A DNA stretch of 64,000 nucleotides from a virus: positions 5,566-69,565 of IMG/VR virus record IMGVR_UViG_3300017929_000004, one strand, 5' to 3'. This document shows, one piece after another, positions 9,278-23,534 of the stretch. A model generated the notes under the pieces. It did not search any database. It had not been told where the DNA came from and saw nothing but the letters and a program-made list of their open reading frames with translations. Position numbers and translations under genes: made by a program. Every line of letters starts with the position of its first letter. The first letter of the stretch is position 1.

Positions 9278-9736
9278 ATGAAAACATGCTACACCTGCAC
9301 GGCTGAAAAACCGGAGGCCGAGTTTTATAAAGGGCGGGGGGAGTGTAAGGTTTGTGCGAGGGCTCGGAATTTGAAGTGGCTGGCAGAGCATCCGGATAGG
9401 GGGGTGGAGTTAAAGAGGCGGTGGCGGAAGGAGCATAAGGCGGAAATCCGAGAGTACTACCGGAACTGGTACGACACAAAGGGGAGGAAACGGGCGAGAG
9501 ATTACGCAGAGGTGATTAAGTCTTGGGATGCGGCAAATCCCGAGAAGCGGGTGGCGCGTGACGCTTTGAGGGTAGCGATTCGATCAAGGAAGATAGTTCG
9601 TCCGAAGCTATGCCAAGGATGCAGAAAGGCGCTTAGGCTCCATGCGCACCATAGGGATTACATGAGGCCGCTTGAGGTGATTTGGCTGTGCGCGAGTTGC
9701 CACAAGCTGGAGCATACCAACAGAAAGACGAAGTGA
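9278..9736 (+). CDS. HNH-like endonuclease
   Basis: KTCYTC..CKVC; CQGC..HAHHRDY.RPLEVIWLCASCHKLEH. Confidence 0.8.
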   Translation: MKTCYTCTAEKPEAEFYKGRGECKVCARARNLKWLAEHPDRGVELKRRWRKEHKAEIREYYRNWYDTKGRKRARDYAEVIKSWDAANPEKRVARDALRVAIRSRKIVRPKLCQGCRKALRLHAHHRDYMRPLEVIWLCASCHKLEHTNRKTK

Positions 9737-9743
9737 GCAGCTT

Positions 9744-11966
9744 ATGGGGAGTGGAAAGGTAAGCGAGATGAGCGAGGGGCTGGACGCGGTTGAATGGCGG
9801 GGTTGTTACGGTGGGGTGCGGGGGGACTTGTTCACGCGGGAGAGCAATGCGCATCCAGCGAAGATGGCGGTGGGGCTGTGCTACCGGATATTCGGGTACA
9901 TGGAAGAGCGGGGGTGGGTGAATAAGGAGACTCAAATAGTTGTTGACGAACTAGGATTACATCACCTAAAATCTCTATATGACCACTGCACTCATCTGTC
10001 CTACATGCCTGAAACCATTCAAAGCCAAGGACACAGAACAGGTATACTGCTCTCAGAAATGCTGGTATCTTCGCAACGGCACCAAGGAAAAAACCTGCCA
10101 GGTCTGCCGAAAACCATTCAAAGCGAGCAATCGAAATCAGAAGTATTGCTCGATGAACTGCAGATCGGTTGTTCTGCTGGGCAACAAATTCGCGAAGGGG
10201 AATCCCCCGAACCACTCAACCTTCAAAGTAGGAGAGCATACCGGAAAGAATCATCCCCGCTGGAAGGGCGGGTGGAGGGAGCACCGAGGGCCTGGTTGGA
10301 AAAAACAGAAGTCTCTACTACGAGAGAGAGACAAGAACTGTCGAATCTGCAGGGTGAGTCCCATCCTTGCCCATCACATAATCCCTTACCGCGAGACCGG
10401 GAATTCTTCACTAACAAATCTCCTCGGCCTGTGTTTCAAATGCCATACCAAGATAGAGCACGAATACGAAAAGAAACTCAAAGAACTCCATGTAGTTTGG
10501 AGGAAGGACTTATTGAATCGTTGCCAACCTGCCCTCTCTGTCGAAATTTAATTCTTCCTACTGAAGGTTCAAGAATCCTGATTCAAGCCTCTAGAATATG
10601 TGAACCCATGGCGGGGATCGGGACGACGCTGGTGGTGGGGGCGAGTTTAGGGTACCAGACGGTGGGAGTGGAGTTGGAGCGGCATTTTCTGGAGATGGCG
10701 GACGCCAATGTGGAGAAGTTGATGGCGAAGATGCCGGGGGCGCCGCGACCGGTGGTGCTGGGAGGGGATGCGAGGAGTCTGATAAAGGTGTTGGCAGAGG
10801 CGCAGGTGGCTGGGGTGTTGACGAGCCCGCCGTACGCGGGAAACATTGGCGGGGACAGCGGGATAGACGCATCGCTAGAGAAAAAAGTCAGTGGGGTACA
10901 CGCGCAGCACAAGATCCGCCAAGACTACGATGGTGTAGTAGCGTCGCCACCCTATGCGGACCAGGATTTAACAGGGGCTCGGCAGTTCCGGTCGAGATTC
11001 GAGCCGGCCCGGCCCGAGGCGAGGGCGAACCCGCATGAGGGATACGACGGCGTGGTGTCGAGCCCGCCATTTTCCGACCAAGCTGCGGCGGGCGGGGGAT
11101 GCGGCATTGCCAAGCGGGGATACGGCCCGGGGGGAACGGATAAGGTAGGCGATCGGGCGTACATGGCGCGGACGCAGGGAACATCGGACGGTCAGATTGG
11201 GAATCTCAAGGATCCGGCCGGCGACATTGACGCGGTACTGACAAGTCCACCTTGGGAGCGTGGCGCCCGCGGCGGGCAGCAGGGATGGTCGGACCCGGAC
11301 AAGGCGGCGGCAGTCGCGGCGGAGAAGTATAAGGACGGCAGCCGGAGGGGGCATCGCGCGTCTGCGGAGGCGATTGCGGCTCAGATGCGGCGCGACGAGA
11401 AACGAGTCTATGGCGAGAGTGAGGGGCAGATTGCAAACCTTCCATTCGGCATGATCGATGCTGCTTTAAGCAGCCCGCCCTATGAGGCAAGCTCGCAGTG
11501 CCAGGACAAGAACTTTAGGAGAGACGACCGTTTTAGGGAAGGAGATTGGCACCAACAAAAAAGGAATAATCCTAACTTCCCAGAATCCCCTTCCTCTGAT
11601 GGTCAAATAGGAAAAGAGCGTGGAGACACCTACCTAAGCGCCATGCTCGCCGTGTACCGCGAACTCCACGCCGTGCTCAAACCCGGGGGCGTCTGCGCCC
11701 TGGTCACCAAGAACCCCGTGAAAAATGGCGCTATCCGCCGCCTGGACGAGGACACGATTCGGCTCATGGAAGCCGCAGGCTTCACGCTCATCGAGCGCAA
11801 GCACGCGATGCTCTCCGAAGACCTTGGCGAGCAGATGACGATGGACGGTGGCATCAAGAAAATCCAGCGCGTGCGCATGAGTTTCTTCAAGCGCCTGCAC
11901 GTCCGGAAGTACCCGGAACTTGCCGTCCTATGGGAAGACGTTTTGTTTTTCAGGAGCGCGTTATGA
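9744..11966 (+). CDS. Amino-DNA methyltransferase with five SPP(Y/F/W) repeats and an in-frame ~219-codon insertion
   Basis: HPAKM, PMAGIGTT (motif I), GVELE, five xSPPx motifs, VYRELHAVLKPGGVCALV. Confidence 0.8.
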   Translation: MGSGKVSEMSEGLDAVEWRGCYGGVRGDLFTRESNAHPAKMAVGLCYRIFGYMEERGWVNKETQIVVDELGLHHLKSLYDHCTHLSYMPETIQSQGHRTGILLSEMLVSSQRHQGKNLPGLPKTIQSEQSKSEVLLDELQIGCSAGQQIREGESPEPLNLQSRRAYRKESSPLEGRVEGAPRAWLEKTEVSTTRERQELSNLQGESHPCPSHNPLPRDREFFTNKSPRPVFQMPYQDRARIRKETQRTPCSLEEGLIESLPTCPLCRNLILPTEGSRILIQASRICEPMAGIGTTLVVGASLGYQTVGVELERHFLEMADANVEKLMAKMPGAPRPVVLGGDARSLIKVLAEAQVAGVLTSPPYAGNIGGDSGIDASLEKKVSGVHAQHKIRQDYDGVVASPPYADQDLTGARQFRSRFEPARPEARANPHEGYDGVVSSPPFSDQAAAGGGCGIAKRGYGPGGTDKVGDRAYMARTQGTSDGQIGNLKDPAGDIDAVLTSPPWERGARGGQQGWSDPDKAAAVAAEKYKDGSRRGHRASAEAIAAQMRRDEKRVYGESEGQIANLPFGMIDAALSSPPYEASSQCQDKNFRRDDRFREGDWHQQKRNNPNFPESPSSDGQIGKERGDTYLSAMLAVYRELHAVLKPGGVCALVTKNPVKNGAIRRLDEDTIRLMEAAGFTLIERKHAMLSEDLGEQMTMDGGIKKIQRVRMSFFKRLHVRKYPELAVLWEDVLFFRSAL
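9943..9972 (+). promoter_or_regulatory. Internal promoter of the nested HNH
   Basis: TTGACG-18-TAAAAT, ATG 9979 six nt downstream. Confidence 0.6.
9979..10551 (+). CDS. HNH endonuclease nested (+1 frame) inside the methyltransferase ORF
   Basis: Two CxxC..F..YCSxxC repeats, NHPRWKGG, CRIC..AHHIIPY..NLLGLCFKCH. Confidence 0.88.
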   Translation: MTTALICPTCLKPFKAKDTEQVYCSQKCWYLRNGTKEKTCQVCRKPFKASNRNQKYCSMNCRSVVLLGNKFAKGNPPNHSTFKVGEHTGKNHPRWKGGWREHRGPGWKKQKSLLRERDKNCRICRVSPILAHHIIPYRETGNSSLTNLLGLCFKCHTKIEHEYEKKLKELHVVWRKDLLNRCQPALSVEI

Positions 11967-12178: not shown

Positions 12179-12525
12179 AATTGAAGGCGCGCGACATCGT
12201 TCCGGGTTGGCCGCGAGGACGATCAACGGAGAATTTTCGGGGCGAATCTCCGGGAGCGAATCGGCGGTACCACGCCAAGCAGGCGGCGATGGTCGAGAAG
12301 TTTAGGTGCCGAGAACTCACCGTCCTCTATCCGCTGGACGGTCTACGCTGGTACCGTGGCTCGTTCTGGGGGCTGCGCTGCGGGCTCTGTGGAGCCGAGT
12401 GGAAGGACGGCAATGCGCCAACCTGCGCTTGCCCACCACATACCGTCATCGGCTTTGGGTACGACGCCGTGCTGAAAACGTGGAGGGGTGTCCTCCGGTC
12501 GGAAGCAGCGAACTTCAATTTCTAG
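12175..12525 (+). CDS. Hypothetical protein
   Basis: ATGA overlap; TAG stop overlaps the palindrome. Confidence 0.6.
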   Translation: MKLKARDIVPGWPRGRSTENFRGESPGANRRYHAKQAAMVEKFRCRELTVLYPLDGLRWYRGSFWGLRCGLCGAEWKDGNAPTCACPPHTVIGFGYDAVLKTWRGVLRSEAANFNF

Positions 12526-12538
12526 TGCAGGTCTGCAC
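12525..12538. repeat. Palindrome GTGCAG-NN-CTGCAC copy
   Basis: GTGCAGGTCTGCAC between a TAG stop and an RBS. Confidence 0.9.
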
Positions 12539-12552
12539 GACGCGAGGTGGCC

Positions 12553-12804
12553 ATGCCCGTCGAACTGAACGCCAGCAGCGAAGCGAAGTCGTTCTACGGG
12601 ATGTATCTGCGCGGCACCGAAGCTGACAAACTCCGTGCCGACATCGGAGTCTCCGATCGTACCATTCTGATTTGGCGGGTTCTTAGCCAGCTTGAGCGGG
12701 ATCGCACGGCCGCCACGGCGCTGCGGGTTCGCCGGCTGGTATTGCGGCAGTTCGACGCACTGGTACGCGCCCACGAGCAGCACCGACAGCCGAAGGCTGC
12801 ATGA
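12553..12804 (+). CDS. Hypothetical protein
   Basis: GAGGTG RBS. Confidence 0.6.
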   Translation: MPVELNASSEAKSFYGMYLRGTEADKLRADIGVSDRTILIWRVLSQLERDRTAATALRVRRLVLRQFDALVRAHEQHRQPKAA

Positions 12805-12836
12805 AAGGGATTGAGTAGTGCAAGGCAAGCTGGGGT

Positions 12837-12926
12837 AGATGTGTAGTTCAGCCGCGTTAGAACACCGTATGCGCACCTTAAATGGTGGGAAGACGGAGGT
12901 CGCTGGTTCGAGTCCAGTCGCATCTA
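12837..12926 (+). tRNA. tRNA-like RNA with an elongated anticodon arm (identity undetermined)
   Basis: Acceptor AGATGTG/CGCATCT, D-stem GTTC/GAAC, T-arm GCTGG-TTCGAGT-CCAGT; 24 nt enclosed by CCGT/ACGG. Confidence 0.7.
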
Positions 12927-12954
12927 CCCTGGAAAGATTAAAGCAAGGCAAGCT

Positions 12955-13066
12955 GCCGCCGAGCCCCGCAGAGGGGGATTCTGACTTTACTAGCCGTGCC
13001 CCTTTGTACGGTTTCTATAGTCAGATCAGAAGTGTCGACTGAGCTGAGATGCTTACGGCGGCACCA
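12955..13066 (+). ncRNA. Cloverleaf-like RNA ending in ACCA
   Basis: 7-bp GCCGCCG/CGGCGGC stem followed by ACCA; three internal hairpins; no canonical T-loop. Confidence 0.5.
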
Positions 13067-13069
13067 AAA

Positions 13070-13368
13070 TGGCAGCACGCGGCCTGGGGATTCCTGAGAC
13101 TGCGAGTTGCCAGAGGCGGGCGTGCGAACGTTGATAGCGAAAGTGACTACCATCTCAGTCCGCTGATAAGGTGGCGGCCACGCCCGCTGAAGGATTGAGA
13201 ATGGCACCGTGCGGCGTCCCAGACCAGACGCCAAAGTTATACCGCTACTGCCGAGTGGGCGCTGGTAAGTCGGCCACGATGCCAGAAAGGCAGGCAGGGG
13301 TGATTCGTGCCACCCACGGCAGGTAAAGTTAGGGGCCAAGCGCGTTTCCCTAGCCACCCCTGCCCTGC
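13070..13368 (+). ncRNA. Four further tandem stem-closed RNA units
   Basis: Closing stems 13070/13112, 13116/13187, 13202/13284, 13293/13364; purine-rich linkers; no plausible ORF. Confidence 0.5.
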
Positions 13369-13389
13369 TGAATGAGAGGATGGTAAACC

Positions 13390-13686
13390 ATGAAACAACT
13401 TTCAGGCATTGAACGAATTGCAAAGGAACGCAGGCGACAAATCCGCGTTGAGAAATGGTCTTCAAGCCACGATGACGCACTCATTAGACGCGAGTTGGCC
13501 CAAGCTGGTGCTCTGTATGCTCTTGGAGCGGGGCACCAAACTGTGCTTCCTTGGAATTGGCCGTGGGATGCTAAATGGTGGAAGCCCGGTACAGATATCA
13601 GAATGTTGGAAAAGGCAGGGGCTTTGATAGCAGCTGAGATCGACAGGCTCTTGAGGTTGTACCGTGCCCCGCCGAGAGGACGGTGA
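13390..13686 (+). CDS. Conserved phage hypothetical protein
   Basis: ERRRQ..E.W...HDD, WPW...WWKP, KAGALIAAEIDRL pattern familiar from phage genomes. Confidence 0.8.
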   Translation: MKQLSGIERIAKERRRQIRVEKWSSSHDDALIRRELAQAGALYALGAGHQTVLPWNWPWDAKWWKPGTDIRMLEKAGALIAAEIDRLLRLYRAPPRGR

Positions 13687-13792
13687 TGCCCGTTGACGAC
13701 GAAACACCAACCACAGTTGAAATAGCGGGGGATGCACCGAGCCGCTGGTGAGTAACGAGTGTGAGCGCCGAGAGCGTGAGGAGGTAAGGGAG

Positions 13793-14008
13793 ATGAAAAG
13801 CTTTCTAGTGGGAGTTGAAATGTCCGTTGCTTTTCTTGCTTGGTTGGTAGGATTCGTTTTCCTGATGGGGAAGGCAGTCACGTTCCTCATGAAAGTTAGT
13901 TCCTTTCATGCTGAAGACGGCTTCTGGTGGGTTGGTGCATGGATGCTGTACATAATCTTGAGTTGTGGATTGTGGGCATGGCTGAGAAGCGAAGGCCCTC
14001 TAAGTTAA
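13793..14008 (+). CDS. Small two-TM membrane protein
   Basis: GGAGGT RBS; hydrophobic. Confidence 0.55.
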   Translation: MKSFLVGVEMSVAFLAWLVGFVFLMGKAVTFLMKVSSFHAEDGFWWVGAWMLYIILSCGLWAWLRSEGPLS

Positions 14009-15839: not shown

Positions 15840-16160
15840 ATGACCGACGAGAATCAAGGAACGCTGAAAGCCATGAAGGTTGAATCTATTTGCTTCCTCT
15901 GTACGCACGCTCGCATCATGGGAATTGAAATTGAGAGTCCTGGCGTACATCCGTTGACTCTGCACTCGGGCATGAACGTAAGGCAAGTGGCGCAGACCGT
16001 TTGTCACGCCCGTGGCGGAGCCACACCGCTCGGATCGAATTGCTCCGTGAAAATGTGCAGCGACTTCGAGCAGCAAATCGAACCCCGGGAGTTAAAAGTT
16101 CCCTTGGTACCCGGAACGGCCACTGGAGACTCTGGACCCACGCCATCGGTATTCAATTGA
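15840..16160 (+). CDS. Hypothetical protein
   Basis: GGGAGG RBS. Confidence 0.6.
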   Translation: MTDENQGTLKAMKVESICFLCTHARIMGIEIESPGVHPLTLHSGMNVRQVAQTVCHARGGATPLGSNCSVKMCSDFEQQIEPRELKVPLVPGTATGDSGPTPSVFN

Positions 16161-16702
16161 TCGAAATCCTCCGCTACCCAAACCGGATGCTCACGACGCC
16201 GACCGAGGCTTGGAATCCAGCAATCCCCTACACCGAAACGCCCTCTCAGATTTCCAGCCAACTCCAAGACGCTATGAAACTGTATGCTGGAGTTGGTCTT
16301 GCGGCGAATCAAATTGGTATGACAGTTGCCATTGCTGTCGTGCGGACGAAAGAGAGAGGCATCCTGACTTTGGTGAATCCCACAATCACCTTCACCAGCG
16401 ATTCCATCGACCCCCGCGGTGGGTTCATCCAAAGCACCGAAGGCTGTCTCAGCCTTCCCGGAATCCAGTTCGTCATTACTCGGTCGGCTGAGATCGAGTT
16501 GGCATGGCTCGACGAAGAGCTTTCTCCGCACACTGAAACCTTCAAAGGCGAGGACGCAATCCGAATCCAGCATGAGACAGATCATTTGAAGGGCATTCTG
16601 GTACTAGACCATCTGAGCGCGCTCAAGCGCAACATGCTGATTCGGAAAATCCAGAAGGTGGTCAGGCTTGAGAAGCGGTACGAGAAGGCGGTGCTGCGAT
16701 GA
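16157..16702 (+). CDS. def: Peptide deformylase
   Basis: GVGLAANQIG, EGCLS, QHETDHLKG; TTG start overlapping the upstream TGA. Confidence 0.95.
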   Translation: MIEILRYPNRMLTTPTEAWNPAIPYTETPSQISSQLQDAMKLYAGVGLAANQIGMTVAIAVVRTKERGILTLVNPTITFTSDSIDPRGGFIQSTEGCLSLPGIQFVITRSAEIELAWLDEELSPHTETFKGEDAIRIQHETDHLKGILVLDHLSALKRNMLIRKIQKVVRLEKRYEKAVLR

Positions 16703-20126: not shown

Positions 20127-23100
20127 ATGGCACTCGTACAGGTTTATCAAGAGTCTGACATAGCCACAGCGGTTGAGGAACTCAACCATCTTCGGGAACA
20201 GGTCCTCTACGAGGACAAGGATGCTGACCCGTGGGAAGCGCTGTCTTCGTCGGAGCTTGAGTGGATCGACGCCGAGATTGGGAAGTGCTGCGCCGACTTC
20301 CGGTACGCCGCATACAACTACTTCTGGTTGGGACACACCAAAGATTCAATTCCTTGCCTCTTCAATCTCTGGCCTGCACAGGAACTTTTCCTTTCCATCG
20401 TCGAGAATATGTGGGCAGAGGGAGAGCCTGCATGGATAATAACGCATAAGGCACGGCAATTAGGAATCAGCACAGTTGTCGAGGCCATCCTCGCTTGGAA
20501 GAATCTTTTCTTTTCCAACCAGATTTCGATGATCATCGCGCAGGATCCCGACCAAGCTGAGCACCTTCTGAAAATCTCGCTCTACATCATGGACCACATG
20601 CCGTGGTGGATGCGGCCGATGGAGCAGTCGCGAGAATTCAAAGAGGCTATGATTCTTGAGAACAAGGACCCCTATGAGCGTTCCTTCAAGGCTGGGCTCA
20701 ATAATTGGATCATCGCAAACGGCTGCACGAAGATTTCCGCATTTGGTCAGGGGAAACCCATACATATTTTTCATGGCAGCGAATTAAGCAGTTGGCCTTC
20801 CGACCGCGCCCGAAAGATCATTTCTCAGGACATGAAGTACGCCTTCGCGAAGAAGCCAGGGTGCCTCGCCGCGATGGAGTCGAAGCCTCGCGGCATGGTG
20901 GGCTACTGGTACAATATGTGGCACGTCTTCGACGGCCAGGGGTTGAGCGCAGAGTACTTCCCCTTCTATGTGCCAGCGTTCTTCGAAAAGGACCGGCGCC
21001 TCGACCCGCCGCCAGCATGGGAGCCCGACGAAGAGGCTATCGCCATTCGTGAGAACTACTCCCTGGAATGGACACAGTGTGACGAATGCGGAACTCCGCT
21101 GCCGATGCGCTGGGGGGAAATCGAGTCGTGTGTGAAGTGTGGATCGCCGAATCATTCGCCGATCCTGCTCGACGACGCTCAACTCTACTGGTATCAGGAA
21201 GAAAAGAAGACCGCCGCCGCGCAGGGGAAGCAGGAACTTCGCGACTTCTACCAGGAAATGAGTATCACGCCGGAACAGGGGTTTCAAGCATCGGGCATCA
21301 TCGTCTTCCCCGACGAAGTGATGGCCTACCTCCAACGGACTTGTCATCCGGGTCAGAAGGGCTACTTCGATGATGCCTTCAACTGGCATGCCGAGCGGAA
21401 CTGCAAAATCTGCCACGACGACCACTTGGGGGAAGACTACCCAATGGAAATGTGGGAGCCTCCGCAAGAAGGGGCGAGGTATGTAGCGGGCGTCGATGTC
21501 GCCGAGGGAGAAGAGGAAGGGGATTACTCAGTAATACACGTTATCAAGATGGGATATGGCTTCAAGATTCCCGACAAGCAAGTGTTTGAGTGGTACGGGC
21601 ACATCGACGGTCACGAGTTCGCCCGCGTCTGCTACCTCGTCGGGAAGGCGTACAACGAAGCGATGATGGCGATTGACGCCATCGGGCCTGGGTACGGAAC
21701 GCTCGGCCTGCTCCTTCATCAATTCAATTACGGCAACATCTATCGGTGGAAGCATCTCGACAGCTTCACGAAAATTCAGAGCAATAAGGCTGGGCTGTGG
21801 ACGAATTACAAGACGCGGCGAACGATGATTACTTGGGGGATTCGCTGGCTGCGCCGACAGATTTGGGAGATCCGGTCAACGCACTTCCTCGAGGAAGCTC
21901 CGTTCTTTCAGAAGGACGACGATGACGCCAAGGCAGAGGCACTTGAAGGGCACTTCGACGACTGCGTTCCAGAGGGAACGCTTGTAACTACCTCGACAGG
22001 TCAAAAACCGATAGAAGAAGTACGAGCCGGAGAACTCGTCCTAACCCATAAGGGGAGATTTATGCCTGTCACCCACACAGGCTCCCGCTTTGAGGACAAG
22101 AAACTCATCGAAGTTATGGCCTATGGAAGACCACCGCTTCTCGTTACAGCCGAACACAAACTCTGGCTTTCGCAAAAGGAATTCATCTATTACGAAAAGG
22201 GGAAAACCTGCGAGTACCAACCGAAAAAAAAGAGATGGAATCGCCATACCAGGGGAAGGCAAACGAAGAAGGTAGTCTATTCTGATCCGAACTGGGTTTC
22301 GTGGGAGTCGTCGCAGTTGAATTTGAAAGGTAAGTATGCGACCTGTTCTGTCGCCGCAACTGCAGAAATTGAAACTGAGAGAGTTGACCTTTTCAAAGGG
22401 TTGCCAGAGAGCTATCGCATAGTCGACGGAGTGTTGACAGCTTTTGCTAAAGGGACGATGCGGGAAATACCAACGCAGCATAAGATGAAGAGGTTCGTTC
22501 CTGTTGACAAGAATTTTCTCAGAATGATTGGCTATTATTTGGCCGAAGGCGCACGGGGACTCAGTAGCATTGCCTTTGCATCGCATCGAAGGGAGTTTCC
22601 AATCCGAAACTGGCTGATTGGCTATATTAAGAGCCTCGGAGCACACGCTGGAGAGTCTAAAACCTCAGCAAACGGTTCAGAAGTTTGGTGTAGTTCGATC
22701 CCATTGAACTATTTTTTTAGAGAATTTCGGAAAAGAGAAGGGAAGCGTTTGCCCTCTTGGGTGACGCTTCTTCCCCCAGAAAAGCAAAAAGAGGTGATTG
22801 TCGGATACCTCTTGGGAGATGGCTGTTTTCGTAGAGAATCAGGCGCTATCCAATCTGCTACGATTAGCCCAGAGGCAGCCTTCCAGATTTTCAATATGGC
22901 CATGCGCTGTGGTTGGGCTTGCTCACTCATTGGCTACTCGGGACAGAATGGTCACAAAAAGCAATGGAAGATTAACTTTTCGTCGTGGACTTCCAAAGAG
23001 ATAAAGTCTCTCATTGAGCCAGAAATACTAGCCTGCAAAAGACCACTAAGCCCGTTAAGAAGGATTTCAACGGACGTTATTAAATTGGTAGATGGTAGAA

Positions 23101-23534
23101 TGTTTGGGACAATCTACAGTACAAAAGAAATCCCGTTTTGTGGAACCGTCTACAATCTCAACGTTGAGGAAGACCATAGTTTCGTTGCCAACGGAACTGT
23201 AATTTCGAACAGCATTATGGCCGGCCTCTGTGCGAATTATGCTGCACATGAGGATGACCGCGACCCGATGACGGGCCGGTTCAACCTGCCGGCGGGAATC
23301 ACGCGAAGTCGCGAGGGCGGAAACTATATCGCCACATGCGTCAAAGGTCACAAGTTTGACACTGACGACCCAAGCCAGGGCGGTCACGCAAGGTGCCCGA
23401 AGTGCAACTCATTGATTCAGGGAGCAGAGAAAAAGCCGCAGAGTGGAACGCTCGAAGCGGAGCGGCTGATAGCGATGGTTACTGGTCCCAAGGCGGAGAA
23501 AGGATTTAACATTCCCCCTTTCGACCAATTATGA
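20127..23534 (+). CDS. terL: Terminase large subunit with intein
   Basis: KARQLGIST (Walker A), IFHGSE (Walker B), YVAGVDVAEG..GDYS and HFDD/SIMA (RNase H-like nuclease). Confidence 0.93.
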   Translation: MALVQVYQESDIATAVEELNHLREQVLYEDKDADPWEALSSSELEWIDAEIGKCCADFRYAAYNYFWLGHTKDSIPCLFNLWPAQELFLSIVENMWAEGEPAWIITHKARQLGISTVVEAILAWKNLFFSNQISMIIAQDPDQAEHLLKISLYIMDHMPWWMRPMEQSREFKEAMILENKDPYERSFKAGLNNWIIANGCTKISAFGQGKPIHIFHGSELSSWPSDRARKIISQDMKYAFAKKPGCLAAMESKPRGMVGYWYNMWHVFDGQGLSAEYFPFYVPAFFEKDRRLDPPPAWEPDEEAIAIRENYSLEWTQCDECGTPLPMRWGEIESCVKCGSPNHSPILLDDAQLYWYQEEKKTAAAQGKQELRDFYQEMSITPEQGFQASGIIVFPDEVMAYLQRTCHPGQKGYFDDAFNWHAERNCKICHDDHLGEDYPMEMWEPPQEGARYVAGVDVAEGEEEGDYSVIHVIKMGYGFKIPDKQVFEWYGHIDGHEFARVCYLVGKAYNEAMMAIDAIGPGYGTLGLLLHQFNYGNIYRWKHLDSFTKIQSNKAGLWTNYKTRRTMITWGIRWLRRQIWEIRSTHFLEEAPFFQKDDDDAKAEALEGHFDDCVPEGTLVTTSTGQKPIEEVRAGELVLTHKGRFMPVTHTGSRFEDKKLIEVMAYGRPPLLVTAEHKLWLSQKEFIYYEKGKTCEYQPKKKRWNRHTRGRQTKKVVYSDPNWVSWESSQLNLKGKYATCSVAATAEIETERVDLFKGLPESYRIVDGVLTAFAKGTMREIPTQHKMKRFVPVDKNFLRMIGYYLAEGARGLSSIAFASHRREFPIRNWLIGYIKSLGAHAGESKTSANGSEVWCSSIPLNYFFREFRKREGKRLPSWVTLLPPEKQKEVIVGYLLGDGCFRRESGAIQSATISPEAAFQIFNMAMRCGWACSLIGYSGQNGHKKQWKINFSSWTSKEIKSLIEPEILACKRPLSPLRRISTDVIKLVDGRMFGTIYSTKEIPFCGTVYNLNVEEDHSFVANGTVISNSIMAGLCANYAAHEDDRDPMTGRFNLPAGITRSREGGNYIATCVKGHKFDTDDPSQGGHARCPKCNSLIQGAEKKPQSGTLEAERLIAMVTGPKAEKGFNIPPFDQL
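21963..23210 (+). mobile_element. Intein (416 aa) with a LAGLIDADG homing endonuclease
   Basis: Starts CVPEGTLVTT, ends VYNLNVEEDHSFVANGTVISN, +1 Ser; IGYYLAEG and VGYLLGDG motifs; lower GC. Confidence 0.93.

Follow-up and report, generated by a model that had tools for sequence, protein, structure and literature searches.

A conserved non-coding RNA array of stem-closed, partly tRNA-like units common to three phage contigs

We analyzed a 64-kb window of an IMG/VR phage record (G000; 69.5 kb, 72% complete according to CheckV) and focused on the region 12805-13390, which is flanked by plus-strand open reading frames (ORFs) at 12547-12804 (85 aa) and 13390-13686 (98 aa). The segment 12805-13370 is a conserved non-coding RNA module of the plus strand, made up of separately folding, stem-closed domains that stand in a fixed order and are joined by short purine linkers. 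The module is absent from Rfam 15, common to three phage contigs, and uncatalogued, and it holds one tRNA-like gene unable to decode and at least one further mimic of the top half of a tRNA. The two other contigs are L082, a 2.6-kb metagenome contig, and G001, an IMG/VR record of 65.7 kb that is likewise 72% complete and contains the locus L091. The stretch is common in peat and wetland metagenomes, and 24 metagenome runs contain it. Nearly all G000 genes in the window lie on the plus strand. Few match known families, and those that do encode DNA methylases, an endonuclease, a peptide deformylase, and a terminase carrying a Hint domain; a DnaB helicase is encoded just outside the window.

A first-pass annotation, made from the letters alone, had described the region as an array of stem-closed units, and all six closing stems were present in the sequence, the predicted folds, and the inverted repeats I2, I3, and I5. 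The parts of the array and the start of the next gene are the following:

12808-12832, plus strand: leader copy 1, consisting of GGATTGAGTAGT and the 13-mer GCAAGGCAAGCTG (12820-12832); direct repeat D1.
12833-12929 (core 12837-12926), plus strand: unit 1, tRNA-like, with an 11-bp closing stem; Rfam RF00005.
12931-12955, plus strand: leader copy 2, with the 13-mer at 12943-12955; the acceptor stem of unit 2 begins with the final G of this 13-mer.
12955-13066, plus strand: unit 2 (A type), from its predicted fold; 7-bp acceptor 12955-12961/13056-13062, D-like arm 12964-12976, long hairpin 12977-13027, small hairpin 13031-13040, T-like arm 13041-13054, ACCA 13063-13066.
13070-13112, plus strand: unit 3 (short B type), a hairpin of 43 nt with the AATGGCAGCACGCGGC block as its 5' strand.
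13116-13187, plus strand: unit 4 (C type), a 9-bp closing stem GCGGGCGTG/CACGCCCGC with an irregular hairpin inside; inverted repeat I5.
13202-13284, plus strand: unit 5 (full B type), closing stem TGGCACCGTG/CACGATGCCA of 9 bp with one C/A mismatch; first arm GGCGTC/GACGCC.
13289-13369 (core 13293-13364), plus strand: unit 6 (D type), a three-way junction with a 10-bp closing stem.
13374-13392, plus strand: GAGAGG ribosome-binding site and ATG (13390) of the 98-aa gene, outside the RNA module, from the sequence and the ORF list.

The 13-mer noted earlier in front of units 1 and 2 occurs exactly only at 12820 and 12943 in the 64 kb and belongs to the direct repeat D1, whose 25-nt copies are 80% identical. 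Both leader copies resemble the leader of L082, with 82% identity over 39 nt for 12794-12832 (L082 2079-2117) and 95% identity for 12943-12963 (L082 2105-2125). The 26 bases 5' of the 13-mer are conserved too, and in the window the upstream gene has its stop codon within them; the leader may be a protein site, a cutting signal, or a recombination site. The linkers, described as short and purine rich, are 72-100% purine in five cases out of five. Tandem Repeats Finder returned no rows for the array, and the units are thus different sequences, not copies of one another.

Unit 1 is the sole Rfam match of the whole window. It aligns to the full tRNA model RF00005 (positions 1-71) with 43.7 bits, against a gathering score of 29, and shows a normal acceptor stem, a D stem, a variable loop of sequence AGGTC, and a T arm with the canonical GGTTCGAGTCC. 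The tip of the anticodon stem and its loop take up 26 positions versus the 11 of the model, giving approximately 15 extra bases. The resulting arm is built of CCGT/ACGG, a purine-rich internal loop, CACC/GGTG, and a 6-nt loop TTAAAT, and it contains no 5-bp anticodon stem with a 7-nt loop presenting an anticodon. The acceptor pairing is lengthened by leader and trailer sequence, and the 3' end is ACCC with no encoded CCA. With default settings, ARAGORN found no tRNAs in the array; its tmRNA search was equally empty, and Rfam gave no tmRNA match. With introns allowed, ARAGORN modeled unit 1 as Lys(CTT), placing in it an intron of 6 nt and a variable arm that is long, and leaving the AGGTC variable loop unused; this model conflicts with the Rfam alignment, and we consider it less likely. 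We know of no bacterial route that removes a 15-nt insert at that site of the anticodon arm, and the RNA of unit 1 as it stands therefore cannot decode, in line with the first-pass view that the array is not a decoding tRNA cluster. Unit 1 lies between the two copies of the 25-nt leader and looks as if it were an inserted cassette; it has no equivalent in L082 or L091, and no tRNA match was found in either of those arrays.

Unit 2 has a 4-bp D-like arm two bases past the acceptor, a 51-nt hairpin replacing the anticodon arm, and a 5-bp T-like stem with a 6-nt T-like loop that abuts the 3' acceptor strand and is followed by the encoded ACCA. On this predicted fold, unit 2 is a mimic of the tRNA "top half." The Rfam comparison proposed in the first-pass annotation singled out unit 1 as a tRNA above threshold, and units 2-6 matched no family of any kind at E up to 10. 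A segment of the T-like arm and loop (13037-13046; GACTGAGCTG / CTGAGATG) is 90% complementary to the hairpin-loop region of unit 4 at 13151-13160 (CATCTCAGTC; inverted repeat I4), and the two units could touch through a loop-loop contact at these sites. The ATCTCAG motif of L082 is found in the T-like loop of the A unit instead.

The remaining units have shapes of their own. The 16-mer AATGGCAGCACGCGGC of unit 3 is identical in L082 and L091 and conserved in all B units. Outside the family, a copy of it lies within approximately 9660-9780 (plus strand) of L139, an unrelated 135-kb phage contig. The stretch around it reads as a tRNA whose anticodon is CTG, the 16-mer falling in the D arm and anticodon stem; being 1 of 47 outside-family matches, this may be due to chance, or the B units may be derived from a tRNA. 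Unit 4, which had been described as enclosing three hairpins, instead folds at minimum energy into a single irregular long hairpin, and it has the closing stem GGGCGTG/CACGCCC and CGGCCACGCCC in common with L091 11554-11613. Unit 5 is a multi-arm domain. In unit 6, the junction joins the closing stem P1, a stem P2 with the loop CCACC, and a stem P3 with the 13-nt loop GCCAAGNGNGTTT; this is the best conserved unit, always the last one, and lies just 5' of the ribosome-binding site of the next gene (5-40 nt). The earlier idea of tRNA mimics therefore stands for unit 1, unit 2, and the cloverleaf-shaped B unit of L091 described below, and fails for the hairpins of units 3 and 4 and for unit 6, which has no tRNA likeness.

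The region folds better than expected by chance, as the first-pass annotation had anticipated. The whole 586-nt region gave a z score of -3.42, with none of 100 dinucleotide shuffles as good, and a separate run gave -3.63, the corresponding values for nine coding windows of equal length from the same phage ranging from +1.25 to -1.9. The scores of the single units, which are flattered by the fact that the unit borders were chosen by their stems, were -4.9 (unit 2), -4.1 (unit 3), -3.6 (unit 6), -3.5 (unit 1), -2.4 (unit 4), and -1.2 (unit 5, not significant alone).

The two related loci were obtained in different ways. L082 was reached via a contig carrying the leader and the 3' end of unit 2 with 161 differing letters between them, and L091 via the loop pattern of unit 6, for which 29 stretches matched and 1 was true. 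The composition of the three arrays is:

Window: tRNA-like unit, A, short B, C, B, D.
L082: 13-mer-bearing leader; 168-nt A unit, GCCGCC...GGCGGC-ACCA; 107-nt B unit, TGGCAGCACG...CGTGCTGCCA; D unit.
L091: A-like unit GGGCGG...CCGCCC; B unit, 80 nt; C unit with the closing stem of unit 4; D unit.

The A unit of L082 has the leader, acceptor strands, and ACCA of unit 2 around a 168-nt body that differs, and the minimum-energy fold of the L091 B unit is a clean cloverleaf with a 10-bp closing stem, arms of 6 bp, and loops of 11, 3, and 7 nt. Unit 6 is 74-78% identical to its counterparts in L082 and L091, and the identity of modules between the phages ranges from 74 to 92%. At all three loci the order is collinear (A-B-D in L082, A-B-C-D in L091), with units gained, lost, or doubled, while the genes on both sides of the array differ; apart from the array, G000 and G001 share only a DnaB helicase (tblastx E below 1e-5). 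The collinear order amid differing neighbors, in genomes sharing so little else, identifies the array as an independent module, and the comparison of the three loci shows that it moves between otherwise unrelated phages.

The alignment of unit 6 across the three loci (A1) contains 27 pairs, with 97.5% of the cells paired and 7 pairs changed on both sides (three in P2, three in P3, and one in P1). None of 500 shuffles reached this count and slid controls gave 0-2, although the sample behind the covariation is thin, at three or four sequences, and the shuffle control ignores relatedness. The loops CCACC and GCCAAGNGNGTTT are invariant across the loci. Of 79 cells, 7 are G-U wobbles that would turn into A/C mismatches if read on the other strand, which fixes plus as the strand; the tRNA match and the ACCA are both on that strand. 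In the alignment of B units (A2), the 10-bp closing stem has 96.7% of its cells paired and 2 pairs changed on both sides (unit 5 versus L082 and L091); the first arm adds 2 further double changes, but L082 is misaligned there.

For variation within the population, we compared the contigs of 4 of the 24 listed metagenome runs over 12300-13900. Only two differences were found in 1,601 bases, 13042 A>G and 13053 T>C, and they occur together on one contig in two runs from two studies, a third run showing the reference base at both. The two positions form one predicted A-U pair in the T-like stem of unit 2, a helix predicted beforehand, and the double change turns it into G-C. By our own arithmetic, approximately 190 predicted pairs stand among approximately 550,000 position pairs per 1-kb contig, making such a coincidence very unlikely. 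Paired changes of the kind the first-pass annotation had proposed to look for in homologues are thus seen in unit 6 (7 pairs), the B closing stem (2 pairs), and unit 2, and they support the region being a non-coding, structured RNA under selection.

These patterns bear on two explanations that would deny the array a role as RNA. The array might be the decaying, at present functionless remnant of a phage tRNA cluster, which would suit the resemblance of unit 1 to a tRNA whose anticodon arm has been disrupted by an insertion and the presence of the B-unit 16-mer in the tRNA-like stretch of L139, itself possibly a chance match. Decay is very unlikely given compensatory changes in three different units, no other differences in 1.6 kb across the four runs, and a module kept between phages with almost nothing else in common. 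Less probable still, indeed close to negligible, is that the region encodes a minus-strand protein of 180 aa (ORF 12938-13480). Long antisense ORFs do lie over the arrays of L082 (2037-2591) and L091 as well, but neither of the two ORFs checked has a Pfam match, and that of the window has an implausible composition. The tblastx matches between the loci fall in several frames on both strands, as from nucleotide conservation, homologues are separated by a 1-nt gap and by gaps of whole units, and the changes fall as stem pairs and not by codon position. The earlier view of approximately 550 nt with no plausible gene is borne out.

If the array acts as RNA, it may do so in one piece or in several. 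A single large, ornate, multi-domain RNA of approximately 310-560 nt, comparable to GOLLD or ROOL, would act whole, possibly in multimeric form, and would have the units as its domains. Kretsch et al. (10.1101/2024.12.08.627333) describe GOLLD as conserved in its 3' region and less so in its 5' part, as holding tRNAs in the linker in some cases, and as occurring in phages close to tRNA islands. The present array, too, is most strongly conserved in its 3' unit and variable in its 5' part, where a tRNA is embedded; the order is collinear at three loci, the linkers are conserved (CCAGAAG), and the invariant loops CCACC and GCCAAGNGNGTTT are what tertiary contacts would need; like those RNAs, it is a large, gene-free, structured phage RNA linked with tRNAs. 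It differs in being shorter (310-560 nt) and arranged as beads on a string, with no pseudoknots or inter-domain pairing detected. No GOLLD, ROOL, or, unit 1 aside, other Rfam match was found in searches at E up to 10 and up to 1. Whole units are present, absent, or duplicated between loci, and the complements of the conserved loops are not common to the three arrays. No conserved pairing between units was found: a long-range helix in the window that joins leader and 3' flank loses two pairs without compensation in L082, and it was rejected as a candidate. Also rejected was a kissing pair in L091, formed by UGAAACU in a B-arm loop with AGUUUC in a loop of unit 6, which is kept in neither the window nor L082. 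We regard a single large RNA as a rather unlikely, if serious, alternative.

Alternatively, the array could punctuate an operon transcript in cis, its cutting or stabilizing signals separating and protecting the mRNAs and any excised RNAs being by-products. The array stands within a row of plus-strand genes with no promoter-like or terminator-like plus-strand site inside it, and unit 6 ends 5-40 nt before the next ribosome-binding site. In PMC1920247, the tRNA-like t-elements of plant mitochondria are described as most likely RNase Z or RNase P signals at mRNA ends, and PMC5291269 reports endonucleolytic RNase E cuts that yield mature CCA ends. The likeness to t-elements lies in tRNA-like folds within longer transcripts; t-elements are single elements at mRNA ends and belong to other organisms, whereas the array is a conserved set of multiple units with invariant loops. 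A single stem-loop would suffice for punctuation, and 3-6 differing units with invariant loops, kept at 74-92% identity amid unrelated neighbor genes, suggest a job of their own. Since the flanking genes differ, no particular mRNA is served. We think it unlikely that punctuation is the function.

The reading we favor is that of a processed array of tRNA mimics, to which, taken as a whole, we give a probability of roughly 0.4. Unit 1 would have been inserted in front of A-B-C-B-D together with the second copy of the 25-nt leader. The array would be transcribed jointly with the flanking genes, since it has no internal promoter-like or terminator-like site on the plus strand. Host tRNA-maturing enzymes would then cut at the tRNA-like ends, RNase P acting at the 5' side of the closing stems and 3' trimming proceeding back to the stem or the CCA, and small stable RNAs would be released. 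Several of these RNAs would present a tRNA top half, that is, an acceptor/T minihelix and CCA, with no usable anticodon. Acting in trans, such RNAs would engage tRNA-binding factors of the host, their most plausible role being that of decoys or sponges that occupy tRNA-directed defences or tRNA-handling enzymes. In 8 of 13 units (ACCA in two, GCCA in four, and CCCA in two), a CCA lies at the closing stem or directly behind it and a purine linker comes next; this amounts to perhaps three independent cases because the B units are paralogues.

Several findings weigh against processing into mimics. No tRNA match besides unit 1 was found at E up to 10 in 12700-13500, units 3, 4, and 6 are not tRNA-like, and the CCA of the B units is base-paired inside the closing stem and forms no free tail. 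The linkers (GAA, AGAA, and GAG) are almost free of U, and given the site preference of RNase E this argues against cutting by that enzyme there. The fixed order, best-conserved 3' unit, and variable 5' units would also fit one large RNA such as GOLLD. All 24 runs with the stretch are DNA, none being on record as RNA. In the two 72%-complete records, no tRNA-repair, CCA-adding, or nuclease-related phage gene points to a tRNA conflict. Finally, there are only three loci and the B units are paralogous, so that both the covariation and the CCA count stem from few independent events.

Among known systems, canonical tRNA (RF00005) is resembled by unit 1 in its acceptor, D arm, variable loop, and T arm and by unit 2 in its 7+5-bp acceptor/T stack and ACCA; the differences are the long anticodon arm and missing CCA of unit 1, the 51-nt hairpin and 6-nt T-like loop of unit 2, and units 3-6 without a match. 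The RNA C and RNA D of phage T4 ("species 1 and 2") are small stable RNAs cotranscribed with phage tRNA clusters. Likened by description, they too are phage-encoded, non-decoding structured RNAs beside a tRNA or tRNA-like gene, presumably matured by tRNA-processing enzymes; they differ from the array, whose phages have no ordinary tRNA gene (none found by ARAGORN in G000 or G001) and whose module is mobile. Type III antitoxin arrays of the ToxI type consist of near-identical tandem repeats upstream of a conserved toxin gene and are presumably cut into units. The present array similarly lies just upstream of a small gene, but it has no tandem repeats, its units vary in sequence and size, and the downstream genes are unrelated at the three loci. 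Y RNAs of the YrlA type (RF02553), which partner with Ro60/Rsr, are stem-closed RNAs with tRNA-like parts, and an array of this type acting with a Ro60-like ring protein (TROVE or DUF2828) would fit the general architecture. Neither domain was found in the two records (0 of 2 for each, both records being 72% complete), YrlA is not among the Rfam matches at E up to 10, and the units have no common handle; we consider this highly improbable. No gene for RNA repair, CCA addition, Ro60, or reverse transcriptase was found in G000 or G001 at that completeness; RVT_1, which a retron-type RNA would require, had no match in either (0 of 2 records). We class the array with the non-decoding structured RNAs that accompany phage tRNA genes and propose its sequence family as new (the A-B-C-D array).

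Searches for further copies were negative. A blastn search of 12500-13700 and the L091 array against 50,697 phage records gave no match except one 22-nt chance hit. Exact array patterns gave no matches each in viral contigs, a scan for the 16-mer AATGGCAGCACGCGGC returned 48 stretches of which only L091 was true, and a pattern run on genome contigs gave four matches, all false. A model of unit 6 (R1), built from the three copies, scored its training copies at 96-110 bits and, over 87 sources, found only those three, with two other matches at E up to 1, L056 and L065 (15.4 bits, E 0.67), taken as chance; over 50 phage records, which covered 50 of the 80 loci around relatives of the 98-aa gene, it found nothing, a set that says little as it had no positive control. 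We found no published description of the array in the full-text literature, and this is no proof of absence in print; PMC10690425 lists tRNA-like candidates in IMG/VR. Two further candidates were rejected: targets of the array elsewhere in the phage, for which only chance-level matches of 10-14 nt were seen, and a hammerhead-like CUGAUGA after unit 6 of L091, with CUGAAUGAG in the window, which has no Rfam ribozyme match and is not conserved in L082.

The neighboring genes offered several observations of their own. The products of the upstream 85-aa and 740-aa genes have no relatives in the viral contigs searched. The downstream 98-aa protein (13390-13686, plus strand) is a member of a widespread family of phage proteins, 85 relatives being present in IMG/VR; its matches to nine PHROG families (186-685 positions in length) are confined to their last approximately 85 positions, and it looks like a free-standing copy of a C-terminal domain. 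The array lies next to none of its relatives at 80 loci (0 of 80 by blastn and nhmmer), and no tRNAs were found near them in the 60 of the 80 loci scanned. A 247-aa protein without a Pfam family lies approximately 1 kb from the array in both other loci, upstream in L082 (338-1081, plus strand) and downstream in L091 (12832-13248, plus strand); its family has 281 relatives in the protein collection and is absent from the window. The DnaB-type helicase of G000 (2712-4154 of L175, just before the window) is 45-47% identical to that of G001 and has a C5 cytosine methylase beside it. Within the window, a peptide deformylase gene, a translation-related auxiliary gene, lies 2.6 kb downstream of the array (16001-16702, plus strand; phrog_2890, E 4e-28). 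The terminase large subunit (20127-23534, plus strand; 1135 aa) has its Hint domain at residues 613-664 and probably contains an intein.

Non-coding RNAs of phages beyond tRNAs are poorly known, and several recently found anti-defence factors are RNAs. Otherwise dissimilar phages retain the module at 74-92% identity and with compensatory changes in it, which suggests a function important enough for independent transfer. It is a doubtful but conceivable extension that soil and peat phages carry undescribed mobile arrays of RNA cassettes, in which stem-closed, often CCA-ended top-half mimics and cloverleaf look-alikes would be shuffled, excised by the tRNA-maturing enzymes of the host, and used as decoys for tRNA-directed immune nucleases or other tRNA-binding factors; the present array would then be a single sequence family within something far more widespread. 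The three loci provide a first alignment for building a search model. If the units are released as tRNA mimics, they would be a testable example of RNA decoys in the conflict of phages with bacteria over tRNA; an array functioning as a single RNA would form a new class beside the few large ornate phage RNAs such as GOLLD and ROOL.

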